Below, piece by piece: positions 7,689 to 47,894 of a DNA stretch of 64,000 nt. The notes beneath the pieces are model-generated. The model made no database searches, had not been told where the DNA came from, and saw only the letters and a list, made by a program, of their open reading frames with translations. The stretch covers positions 108,243 through 172,242 of the forward strand of contig JAIQFY010000010.1 in assembly GCA_020072965.1 (NCBI GenBank), written 5' to 3'. Source of the stretch: Terriglobia bacterium. Lineage in GTDB: Bacteria; Acidobacteriota; Terriglobia; JAIQFV01. Position 1 is the first letter of the stretch; each line of letters opens with the position of its first letter. Position numbers and translations under genes: made by a program.

Positions 7689-8351
7689 ATGTCTCTGTTA
7701 GGTGAGAAGGAACAGGTAATCGTAAGCGAGCAATTTCAAAGGCTCGAGAATCCTGTGAGGATGATCCACTTTACCCAGGGCTTGATGTGTGACACCTGTC
7801 CCGAGACCCAGCGCCTCCTCGAAGACCTGGCATCCCTGTCTGACAAGGTCACCCTTGAGGTCCATAACTTTGCGATTGAACAAGAACTGGCGGCGCAGTT
7901 TCAGGTGGCTCGAGTCCCTGCAACTGTTATACAGACAGAGAAGGATTTTGGAATTCGGCTTTACGGGTTGCCTTCGGGTTACGAATTTGCTTCTCTATTG
8001 CACGCCATCCTGGCCGTGTCCCGTTCCGCCACCGAGTTGTCGGAGGAATCAAAGACCCTACTCCGATCCGTTACCACTCCTACTCACATCCAGGTGTTTG
8101 TGACCCCCACCTGACCGTATTGCCCCGCGGCCGTGAAGCTCGCGTACGAACTGGCAATTGAGAACGACTACATCACCTCGGACATGGTGGAAGTTTCAGA
8201 ATATCCGGATCTGATCCGCAAGTATCAGGTTCGAGGAGTTCCGAAAACCGTGGTGAACGATACCGTTGAGTTTGTTGGCGCTCTTCCGGAAGCAGAGTTT
8301 GTCGCGCAGGTTCTAAGAGGGGTAATCCCGGCCGGTTTGGAAAACAGGTAG
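7689..8351 (+). CDS. Two-domain thioredoxin-fold protein disulfide oxidoreductase (PDO/glutaredoxin-like), predicted selenoprotein with in-frame TGA (Sec) at 8112..8114 giving a UPYC active site
   Basis: Track ORFs 7689..8114 and 8133..8351 are in the same frame and separated only by TGA. Reading through gives ...VFVTPT-U-PYCPAAVKLAYELA..., i.e. a CPYC-type redox motif with TGA at the first Cys. The first domain has a CDTC motif. A SECIS-like hairpin follows. Confidence 0.6.
8115..8160 (+). promoter_or_regulatory. Candidate bacterial SECIS hairpin downstream of UGA 8112
   Basis: ccguaUUGCCcCGCGgccgugaagcuCGCGuacgaacuGGCAA: nested stems with a GU-containing apical loop about 15-25 nt after UGA. 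Not validated by folding. Confidence 0.3.
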
Positions 8352-32090: not shown

Positions 32091-32528
32091 ATGTTGTCAA
32101 TCGGAGAGAAGGCCCCCGACTTCAAAGTGAAGACCCATGAGGGAAAGGAACTTTCGCTGGGCCAGTTTGCGGGGAGCAAAGTGGTCCTGTGGTTCTACCC
32201 CAAGGCTGACACCCCCGGCTGAACCAACGAAGGCAAAGGATTCCGTGATCGAATCCGAGAGTATGACGCAAAGAACATGAAGATCCTTGGAATCAGTTTT
32301 GATACGGTCGAGGAAAATGCCGCGTTTGCAAAGAAATTTCAGTTTCCCTTCCCCCTATTGTGCGACACTGACCGGAAAATAGGATTGGCTTATGGGGCCT
32401 GCGAATCGGTTCGGGATGAACACGCCAAGCGAATTTCATATGTGATTGGTGAAGACGGTAACATCCTTCAAGCCTATCCCAAAGTCGATGCCGCGCGCCA
32501 TCCGCAAGAAGTGCTGGAGAAGCTCTAG
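32091..32528 (+). CDS. Peroxiredoxin PrxQ/Bcp family, predicted selenoprotein with TGA (Sec) at 32220..32222 replacing the peroxidatic Cys
   Basis: Manual translation from ATG 32091 (AGGAGGGA RBS): MLSIGEKAPDFKVKTHEGKELSLGQFAGSKVVLWFYPKADTPG-U-TNEGKGFRDRIREYDAKNMKILGISFD... continues in frame into track ORF 32277..32528. FYPKADTPGxT is the Prx active-site motif with TGA at the Cp position. A possible resolving Cys is retained (LLCD, ACES). Confidence 0.7.
32238..32256 (+). promoter_or_regulatory. Candidate SECIS hairpin for Prx UGA 32220
   Basis: GGAUUC-cgugauc-GAAUCC stem-loop starting 15 nt after UGA. Apical loop contains GU. Confidence 0.35.
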
Positions 32529-45029: not shown

Positions 45030-45187
45030 ACGGACGCGGACAAACACGGAACACACGGAGAAGTAATAACAGCTATCCATGGATTTGAACCTTGTCGTTG
45101 TACGGACCAGCCAAAATGCAAACCGGCTGGCGATGACAAGAGTCAGGTCAGGCCAGCCGGAATAACATTCTTAATCCCGCCGGAACC

Positions 45188-45778
45188 TCAAGGAAATTTC
45201 GTCACGGCGTCCACGACCTGCTGATCGGGCAAAAGCTTGCCTTCCACGTTTTCCCAGAGGATTTTCCCGTCTGTTCCCACCAGAAAGTACGTTCGCTTGG
45301 CCACCACGGAATGGATTCCCGGGACGTTGATTTCATGTTCGATGTGATAGTCCTTCACCACCTTGCGTTCCATATCACTCAGCAGAGGAAAGGGCAGACT
45401 CAGACTTTCTCTGAATTTATCCTGGGAAAAGGGTGTGTCGGTGCTGATTCCCCACACTTCGATGTTCTTGGCCTTTAACTTTTCATAATTCTCTCTGAAC
45501 CCAGAGAGCTCGGTCGTTCAACCCCCGGTGAAATCGAAAACATAAAAGGCCAGAAGGACCTTTTTTTTGCCGCGCATGTCACTCAATTTCATCGGGGTGA
45601 GTTTGGCTCCGGAGGGGAGGGCAAAGTCCGGTGCTGCGTCTCCCACCTTGGGGGGTTGCTCGCCGGTACTGACGGGAGGGGACGCACTTTGAGCTACTAA
45701 GGCTAATGTGGCCATCAGCATTACAGCCACAAAAAGGGACAAAACTAGAAACGTTTTTTTCATTGATTCCTTCCTCAA
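45188..45778 (-). CDS. Exported AhpC/TSA-family peroxiredoxin, predicted selenoprotein with TGA (Sec) at 45518..45520 at the peroxidatic position
   Basis: Track ORFs 45518..45778 and 45188..45457 are in the same frame. Reading through gives signal peptide ...[51 protein letters not shown]... The Prx FxxDFTxVCxTE motif has TGA in place of Cys. Confidence 0.7.
45491..45508 (-). promoter_or_regulatory. Candidate SECIS hairpin for UGA 45518
   Basis: mRNA: UGA acgaccgag CUCUCUG-gguu-CAGAGAG. 7-bp stem, GGUU apical loop 17 nt downstream of UGA. Confidence 0.4.
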
Positions 45779-45865
45779 GAAACGAGATTCGGACCGATTT
45801 CTGTTAGGGTCACCGCACTATAGCCAATCTCTCAACAACATGCAAGAGACGAATGTGAAGCGTCC

Positions 45866-47060: not shown

Positions 47061-47158
47061 AGAAGTCGGAAGTCAGAGGTCGGAACGTAGAGTCGAAAAG
47101 GCAGATATTCCAGGGATTGTACTTCGGACTTTGAACTTTGAACCTTGAACTTTGAACT
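47061..47158. repeat. Heptamer tandem arrays (AGAAGTC)n and (TTGAACT)n; inverted copy of the 50187..50373 element
   Basis: agaagtcggaagtcagaggtcgg ... ttgaactttgaaccttgaactttgaact seen directly. It is the reverse complement of the arrays at 50187-50373. Confidence 0.6.
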
Positions 47159-47189
47159 GGATTTCTTGGGCTTTGGACTCTTCTAAATC

Positions 47190-47894
47190 ATGAAAGTTCA
47201 AGTTCTTTACTTCGCCTACTGTCGTGACCTGATGGGTCGGGAGCGCGAGTGGTTGACTCTTGATGACAGCGCGCGCGTTTCGGACCTGCTGGCAAAGTGT
47301 CTTTCTGAGAAGCCTGCCCTGGAACCGCTCCGCCGGAACCTTCTCGTTGCAGTCAACCAGGAATATGCCCAATCCGATCAGCTTCTTGCGGATGGTGATG
47401 AAGTTGCCCTCTTTCCCCCGGTCAGTGGTGGCGCTGTGGAGGTCGAGGCCCTTCGGGATTTCTATGCCGTCACACACACGCCGATCGATTCTGCCCAAGT
47501 CATCCAGGCGTTGAAACGGCCCGAGGACGGGGCGGTCGTGGTCTTCGATGGGATTGTTCGCAACAACTCCCGCGGCAAGCGGACGAGGTACGTGGAATAT
47601 CACGGGTACGAGCCCATGGCGCTGAAGAAAATTCGTGAAATCGGCGAACGGATCAAATCCATGTGGGACATCGACGGTGTTGCCATTACCCACCGGCTCG
47701 GCCATTTGGACATCGGGGAATCGAGCGTGCTGATTGTGGTAACTTCGGCCCACCGCAAAGCTGCGTTTGATGCCTGCCACTACGCCATTGATCTCCTCAA
47801 GAAGACCGTTCCGATTTGGAAGAAAGAGTGCTTTGAGGACGGCGAAATGTGGATTGAAGGCGATGTGCCGGTAAAAGCCTGCCGCGAGCACTGA
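47190..47894 (+). CDS. Fused molybdopterin synthase MoaD-MoaE (MoaX-like)
   Basis: N-terminal ~81 aa MoaD ending ...LFPPVSGG, directly fused to MoaE (FDGIVRNNSRGK...HRLGHLDIGE...VPIWKKE). Confidence 0.8.
   Translation: MKVQVLYFAYCRDLMGREREWLTLDDSARVSDLLAKCLSEKPALEPLRRNLLVAVNQEYAQSDQLLADGDEVALFPPVSGGAVEVEALRDFYAVTHTPIDSAQVIQALKRPEDGAVVVFDGIVRNNSRGKRTRYVEYHGYEPMALKKIREIGERIKSMWDIDGVAITHRLGHLDIGESSVLIVVTSAHRKAAFDACHYAIDLLKKTVPIWKKECFEDGEMWIEGDVPVKACREH

Follow-up and report, generated by a model that had tools for sequence, protein, structure and literature searches.

The stretch of DNA analysed here, 64,000 nucleotides of a Terriglobia (Acidobacteriota) genome (contig JAIQFY010000010.1, positions 108,243 to 172,242; the window), very probably contains a genuine selenoprotein gene, coding for an exported BCP/PrxQ-like peroxiredoxin (Prx) in which selenocysteine (Sec) is the peroxidatic residue. 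The gene occupies 45188..45763 on the minus strand and runs for 191 codons from ATG 45763 to its true stop, TGA 45190-45188. Codon 82 is an in-frame UGA (45518..45520, minus strand), located at the peroxidatic position of a TxxU motif and interpreted by us as Sec, U82. The read-through product begins with MKKTF and ends with TKFP; the precursor would have 191 residues and the predicted mature protein about 167. A sequence-only reading of the window had joined two minus-strand open reading frames (ORFs), 45518..45778 and 45188..45457, by read-through of the intervening stop codon, and had named a frameshift or a real stop, detectable by homolog alignment, as the outcome that would speak against it. 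Translation from ATG 45763 bears out the junction: the two frames are the same and only one TGA (45520-45518) lies between them. ATG 45763 is preferred over the mechanically listed TTG 45778 because it is preceded, 4-12 nt upstream, by the Shine-Dalgarno-like GAGGAAGGA (45768..45776, minus strand). Orthologs begin with MKK or MRK at the equivalent ATG, and those at 72-86% identity are colinear with the window gene from start through stop.

In alignments, the UGA of the window falls on the peroxidatic Cys of the homologs. Among the 120 best database homologs, the columns of the PxxxTxxC motif read P...C in 104 cases, V...W in 13 and V...C in one. The W-called proteins were followed to the DNA level at three loci (L001-L003), and each W turned out to be a TGA misread as Trp by the gene caller on a short contig. 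Database homologs called with W at this position ('FTGGWTKEL') include P0005, P0009, P0014, P0021, P0028, P0029, P0032 and P0034.

TGA is present in the same column in all 24 related loci that cover the position (L001-L019 and L021-L024). With one genome per species scanned, it was found in all four orthologs from Terriglobia or other Acidobacteriota metagenome-assembled genomes (MAGs; L004-L007, 72-86% identity) and in all seven more distant relatives, from Dormibacterota, Bacillota and Dehalococcoidia MAGs and one unidentified bacterium. A metagenome scan added one close ortholog (L015) and eight further loci covering the position, again all with TGA. Overall, the codon is kept in five close Terriglobia orthologs and about 20 more distant loci, unassigned contigs as well as members of several phyla, in independent genomes and metagenomes. 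The gene, including its TGA, is also present in identical form in two public assemblies, ENA ERZ27247940 (k141_466079, L025) and Logan (L026). When a collection of 5.8 billion proteins was searched with the C-terminal half, every relative at 70% identity or more was a fragment of 61-96 residues; all public calls thus break the gene at the TGA. No full-length Cys ortholog at 70% identity or more to the C-terminal half was found in that collection, and Sec appears to be fixed in this clade. Non-synonymous divergence (dN) is far below synonymous divergence (dS) on both sides of the UGA (downstream, 0.018 and 0.75 for the window gene and L004), and by this measure both halves of the gene are under purifying selection.

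If the TGA were a real stop, the locus would be a pseudogene or two small ORFs, and the hairpin that follows it a by-product of the encoded amino acids. This is how public calls on the identical sequence (L025) treat it, dividing it into ORFs of 81 and 89 residues; TGA is moreover a normal stop in this genome, and the hairpin does not stand out against local shuffles. We nevertheless regard such a reading as hardly credible. The alignment shows both TGA and reading frame kept in more than 20 loci of several phyla, the protein sequence is conserved in the stretch after the TGA that precedes any possible restart codon, and dN is far below dS in the downstream half. A functional Prx domain would need both halves, and the frozen synonymous sites of the hairpin, described below, go beyond what selection on amino acids explains.

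The UGA might also be recoded or read through without Sec, either as Trp (genetic codes 4 or 25) or by near-cognate insertion of Cys or Trp, a reading to which the 13 W-called homologs and the lack of visible Sec machinery in the window would lend themselves. The W calls are TGA at all three loci checked. In the window, TGA is the stop of 12 of the 36 Pfam-supported genes and all 124 Trp codons are TGG; this genome uses the standard genetic code. With Trp where the homologs have the peroxidatic Cys, catalysis would be lost; a conserved hairpin of the bacterial selenocysteine insertion sequence (bSECIS) type follows the codon, and another gene of the window fits a curated selenoprotein family. 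Recoding to anything other than Sec is thus a very remote prospect. Because the TGA is conserved, the gene is under purifying selection, the code is standard and the identical gene occurs in two assemblies, a pseudogene, a sequencing error and a UGA=Trp code are all very unlikely. The checks suggested with the sequence-only reading and carried out here all spoke for it, and from the sequence comparisons we are highly confident that this is a genuine peroxiredoxin gene encoding Sec.

The bSECIS-type hairpin (45491..45508, minus strand) has a 7-bp stem, CUCUCUG/CAGAGAG, and the apical loop GGUU. It begins 9 nt after the UGA, as the sequence-only reading had it, with a UGA-to-loop spacing of 16 nt and a folding energy of -9.1 kcal/mol. 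The published bSECIS consensus (PMC13188914) combines an upper stem of 4-16 bp with an apical loop of 3-9 nt whose first two positions include a G (most often as GG or GU); it places the loop 16-37 nt from the UGA and sets the minimum free energy (MFE) at -7.5 kcal/mol or lower. The window hairpin agrees with all four of the published criteria. A perfect-stem hairpin that fits this model equally well or better follows 1.8% of the 2401 TGA triplets of the window. The evolutionary evidence for the hairpin is stronger than this geometric fit and its chance frequency. In the hairpin codons U+4 to U+9 (CUC UCU GGG UUC AGA GAx), no synonymous difference is seen in the 82 comparable pairs from six close sequences. 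The rate of zero compares with 0.53 for the codons upstream and 0.48 for those downstream, and none of the 155 six-codon windows of the gene has a lower one. Within the clade, the argument for the hairpin is carried by this conservation of synonymous sites, because the stem never varies there.

More distant Sec homologs have hairpins of their own at this place. Those of the Dormibacterota type have (U)GACCG-AGUUN-CGGUC(A) after the UGA, a hairpin whose 5' arm occupies the same columns and whose loop keeps the G-U-U, so that a GACCG/CGGUC stem stands where the window clade has UCUCUG/CAGAGA. In a signal-peptide-bearing group with the active-site sequence YVLAFTGGU-TKEL (the TKEL group), the hairpin is GGCNUAUCA-GGC-UGAUAUNGCC, and one of its stem pairs is A-U, G-C or C-G across three loci. 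A longer stem enclosing the UGA, GGCCUUU...AAAGGCC, was suggested by a match to the Rfam family XIST_intron and was rejected, since the orthologs keep the apical hairpin only.

With U read as Cys, the product matches the Pfam domain AhpC-TSA (PF00578) with an E-value of 3.1e-34 (118 bits, cutoff 26). The match covers residues 40-169, spanning the UGA, and positions 1-122 of the 124 in the profile. The best relatives of solved structure are archaeal Bcp peroxiredoxins, among them Sulfolobus tokodaii Bcp (2ywn, E-value 7e-25) and 2cx3, and BCP/PrxQ models are the best-scoring NCBIfam subfamilies (BCP, E-value 1e-21). By best similarity, the protein is a peroxiredoxin of the BCP/PrxQ type that lies outside every named equivalog, because it scores below every curated NCBIfam cutoff. 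The sequence-only reading had seen U in place of the peroxidatic Cys of an AhpC/Prx1 motif of the DFTFVCPTE type; the first part of that claim stands, and the second has to be changed to the BCP/PrxQ-type FYPxxFTxGCTxE.

Thr79 of the TxxU motif (45527..45529, minus strand) occupies a nearly invariant column in both homolog alignments (A1 and A2). Arg157 (45293..45295, minus strand), the conserved catalytic arginine in the sequence KRTYFLV, is in an invariant column of both and aligns with the corresponding Arg of 2ywn and 2cx3. Thr79, U82 and Arg157 are thus all in invariant or nearly invariant Prx active-site columns. Val75 (45539..45541, minus strand) replaces the Pro of PxxxTxxC, as judged from the homolog alignment, and the active-site sequence in all Sec loci reads YV(F/L)(D/A)FT(G/P)GU. 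In BCP/PrxQ proteins the resolving Cys is typically found five residues past the peroxidatic Cys, although it is not universal in the subfamily. The predicted mature protein and its orthologs are free of cysteine and therefore have no resolving Cys of the BCP/PrxQ type, so the selenenic acid would depend on an external thiol for its reduction. Unlike the Terriglobia clade, the TKEL group has a conserved C-terminal Cys. The only Cys homolog found with Val for the motif Pro is P0061 ('AFYVHDFTGGCTTELKC'), a 334-residue protein from a JGI metagenome; it is exported, has six residues further on a Cys that may act as the resolving one, and is extended at its C-terminus by about 170 residues of unknown function.

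The unusual Val, the missing resolving Cys and the sub-threshold NCBIfam matches to ResA (52 bits) and to other thioredoxin-fold selenoproteins, together with scores below all Prx equivalog cutoffs, could be taken to indicate an exported selenoprotein whose main role is other than peroxide scavenging: a periplasmic thiol/selenol oxidoreductase or redox relay, similar to ResA or TlpA or acting in sulfenic-acid or selenium handling. We think this improbable. The Prx-specific TxxU motif and the catalytic Arg are conserved, there is no CxxC or UxxC, and the strongest matches (Pfam, BCP and the Bcp structures) are all to peroxiredoxins. Peroxiredoxins of the 1-Cys kind, lacking a resolving Cys, are also an established mechanistic class.

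The N-terminus is predicted, on heuristic features only, to be a signal peptide of the Sec-translocon type, formed by residues 1-24 (45692..45763, minus strand) and followed by Gln-Ser. It is part of a 39-residue extension with a Lys-Lys n-region, a hydrophobic core (12-residue Kyte-Doolittle mean of 3.0) and an x-x-A|Q site; neither a twin-arginine motif nor a lipobox is present. These features, in line with the signal peptide of the sequence-only reading, are conserved in all Terriglobia orthologs. The TKEL group has the extension as well; the Sec homologs of Dormibacterota and Dehalococcoidia lack it and begin with ML(P)VG. The Sec-peroxiredoxin is probably exported, and its most likely location is the periplasm, because the signal peptide is of the Sec-translocon type by these heuristic criteria. 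The hydrophobic segment could instead be an uncleaved signal anchor that tethers the Prx domain to the outer face of the inner membrane. Such an anchor would fit the long h-region of about 20 residues, the Leu at position -3 of the window protein, which is suboptimal for signal peptidase I, and the following linker rich in Pro, Ser and Thr; against this, the -3 and -1 positions of orthologs are taken by small residues of the canonical kind (SVA|Q, ASA|Q, STA|Q) and no positive charge follows the h-region. We consider a signal anchor unlikely.

Reading the protein as an exported Sec-peroxiredoxin, the following sequence of events can be proposed. At UGA-82, the GGUU hairpin, itself a conserved RNA element, would recruit the complex of SelB, GTP and Sec-tRNA(Sec), allowing Sec to be inserted instead of translation being terminated. 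The precursor would pass through the Sec translocon and be cleaved after Ala24. In the periplasm, the U82 selenolate, placed by Thr79 and Arg157, would reduce hydrogen peroxide or organic hydroperoxides, as family membership suggests, and become a selenenic acid. Recycling would be performed by an external periplasmic thiol, most plausibly that of a TlpA/ResA/DsbD-type thioredoxin-like protein, for which PprX of Caulobacter provides a precedent. This reductant may itself be fed by a transporter of the DsbD, CcdA or ScsB type, as in the PprX-TlpA-ScsB system.

Several points weigh against the reading of the gene as an exported Sec-peroxiredoxin. The stability of the hairpin is unexceptional when compared with shuffles of the same 66 nt (z=-0.3), and the invariance of its stem among the six close sequences means that there is no within-clade covariation. 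No Rfam family was found for it in a gathering-threshold scan of the whole window or a permissive scan of 45150-45800, which yielded only chance-level matches to XIST_intron and sR32. Genes for selA, selB, selD or tRNA-Sec are absent from the 64-kb window, the part of the genome that the search covered; the two further selenoprotein candidates of the window and the recorded use of Sec in the phylum are indirect support for such machinery. A gene for a redox partner or reductant was found neither in the window nor in the syntenic loci, where the conserved neighbours are functionally unrelated; the same holds for DsbD, ScsB, CcdA and periplasmic thioredoxin-like reductants. The Pro of PxxxTxxC has been called absolutely conserved in peroxiredoxins (PMC3322552); 104 of 105 Cys homologs have it, and every Sec form of the clade has Val. 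The NCBIfam scores are 77.3 bits for BCP (NF006960, cutoff 140), 73.3 for NF053650 (cutoff 260), 59.9 for PrxU (NF040737, cutoff 270) and 23.5 for Prx-SUH (NF045827, cutoff 298). Finally, peroxidase activity, the reductant and cleavage by signal peptidase are all inferred.

The window gene belongs to a bacterial selenoprotein class known since 2001. Sec-containing Prx of the TxxU type (COG1225/PF00578) was first shown in Eubacterium acidaminophilum (Sohling et al. 2001, as cited in PMC13188914) and has been catalogued since (PMC1088965, PMC1794560). It is among the oldest and most abundant bacterial selenoprotein families (PMC13188914, PMC1794560), has arisen repeatedly through Cys-to-Sec conversion (PMC1794560), and Acidobacteria are recorded Sec users (PMC1794560). 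The window protein shares with this family the AhpC/TSA fold, Sec in place of the peroxidatic Cys, a bSECIS directly downstream of the UGA and widespread Cys homologs; it differs in scoring below the PrxU model and in having a signal peptide, Val for Pro and a mature protein free of Cys. With the BCP/PrxQ proteins (E. coli Bcp, NF006960; archaeal 2ywn and 2cx3) it shares the best sequence matches, the domain length and FTxG(C/U)TxE, but it has Sec for Cys and is without the resolving Cys that many BCPs carry five positions beyond the peroxidatic residue. Two other thioredoxin-fold, peroxidase-like selenoproteins, Prx-SUH (NF045827) and the 'peroxiredoxin-like family protein UxxS' listed in PMC13188914, are comparable in kind, but have a CxxU motif and membership of cd02970, respectively, unlike the TGGU-TTE of the window protein.

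For location, the closest comparison is PprX, a BCP/PrxQ-type peroxiredoxin that Caulobacter crescentus exports and that receives its reducing power from TlpA and from ScsB or DsbD (PMC3322552). Compared by description, both have a BCP/PrxQ-like domain behind an N-terminal signal sequence, a place in the cell envelope and, presumably in our case, a thioredoxin-like reductant. PprX has a peroxidatic Cys, the PxxxTxxC motif and a resolving Cys; the window protein has Sec, Val for Pro and no resolving Cys. Literature searches of incomplete coverage found no paper on an exported or secreted Sec-peroxiredoxin, which is absence of evidence only. Export and a Cys-free, '1-Sec' chemistry are each modest variants; export, the Cys-free design and the Pro-to-Val change together are less ordinary. 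It is conceivable, though we would put it slightly below an even chance, that the Terriglobia clade and the TKEL group represent the first bacterial cell-envelope selenoenzyme peroxidase, Sec-fixed, Cys-free in its '1-Sec' chemistry, with an active-site Pro-to-Val change and recycled by a periplasmic reductant. If this were true, selenium-dependent antioxidant defence would extend to the periplasm of soil Acidobacteriota.

The general picture is unchanged, because Sec-peroxiredoxins and SECIS elements are well established. The result corrects an annotation error, in that public calls split the gene and the recorded translations of some relatives show a Trp as the catalytic residue. It also adds a probable clade of exported, Cys-free Sec-peroxiredoxins to the selenoproteome of the Terriglobia, which are abundant soil bacteria. 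Two questions are raised by it: why the Sec forms have Val instead of the Pro of PxxxTxxC, and what reduces a 1-Sec peroxiredoxin in the periplasm.

The window contains two more TGA-interrupted candidates for thiol oxidoreductases, in line with the sequence-only reading, which had counted the present gene as the third selenoprotein. The first, at 7689..8351 on the plus strand, is a candidate thioredoxin/glutaredoxin-like selenoprotein with TPT-U-PYC around TGA 8112-8114. Its product scores 260 bits against a cutoff of 185 with the NCBIfam model TIGR02187, 'PDO_seleno_TRX'. After its UGA, the perfect-stem scan finds a weak hairpin of -2.8 kcal/mol and the MFE fold a longer, imperfect stem. The second, at 32091..32528 on the plus strand, is a candidate cytoplasmic selenoprotein of the BCP/PrxQ type, with FYPKADTPG-U-TNE around TGA 32220-32222. 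It keeps the motif Pro and scores 103 bits with NCBIfam BCP, below the cutoff of 140; it has an AGGAGG-like ribosome-binding site and, 15 nt after the UGA, the hairpin GGAUUC-CGUGAUC-GAAUCC. Three selenoprotein genes in 64 kb suggest a heavier use of selenium than the handful of selenoproteins reported for Acidobacteria.

Downstream of the Sec-peroxiredoxin gene, the 3' untranslated region (45105..45187, minus strand) is unusually structured, with an MFE of -35.7 kcal/mol (z=-3.8 compared with shuffles), and includes a 9-bp GC-rich stem followed by UUUGCAUUUU. In the centroid fold, CCGGCUGGC...GCCAGCCGG and then UUUGCAUUUU make up a putative terminator-like element at 45113..45160 on the minus strand; the consensus terminator scan missed it because its loop is longer than 8 nt. 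This structured 3' end suggests a monocistronic unit. No promoter was found in the promoter scan for the gene. The sole terminator-like site of the consensus scan, AAAAGGTCCTTCTGGCCTTTT with a T-rich tail (45544..45564, minus strand), falls inside the coding sequence, some 25 nt before the Sec-UGA. One such site was found where 1.2 are expected by chance, and it is conserved only in part among orthologs.

The window is an ordinary chromosomal region, with genes for aconitase, RelA/SpoT, SecDF, Tgt, methylmalonyl-CoA mutase, EF-G and others. The orthologous loci have a conserved order, in which a TrkA-type potassium channel, the Sec-peroxiredoxin, a T2SSG-like lipoprotein on the opposite strand and a TPR protein follow each other. 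At 47073..47894, two long ORFs overlap on opposite strands. The one on the plus strand (47190..47894) is annotated as a ThiS-MoaE fusion in public calls on the same sequence. The one on the minus strand (47073..47891) has no Pfam match, yet its tblastn matches are conserved in syntenic loci, probably because it lies antisense to the conserved MoaE gene.

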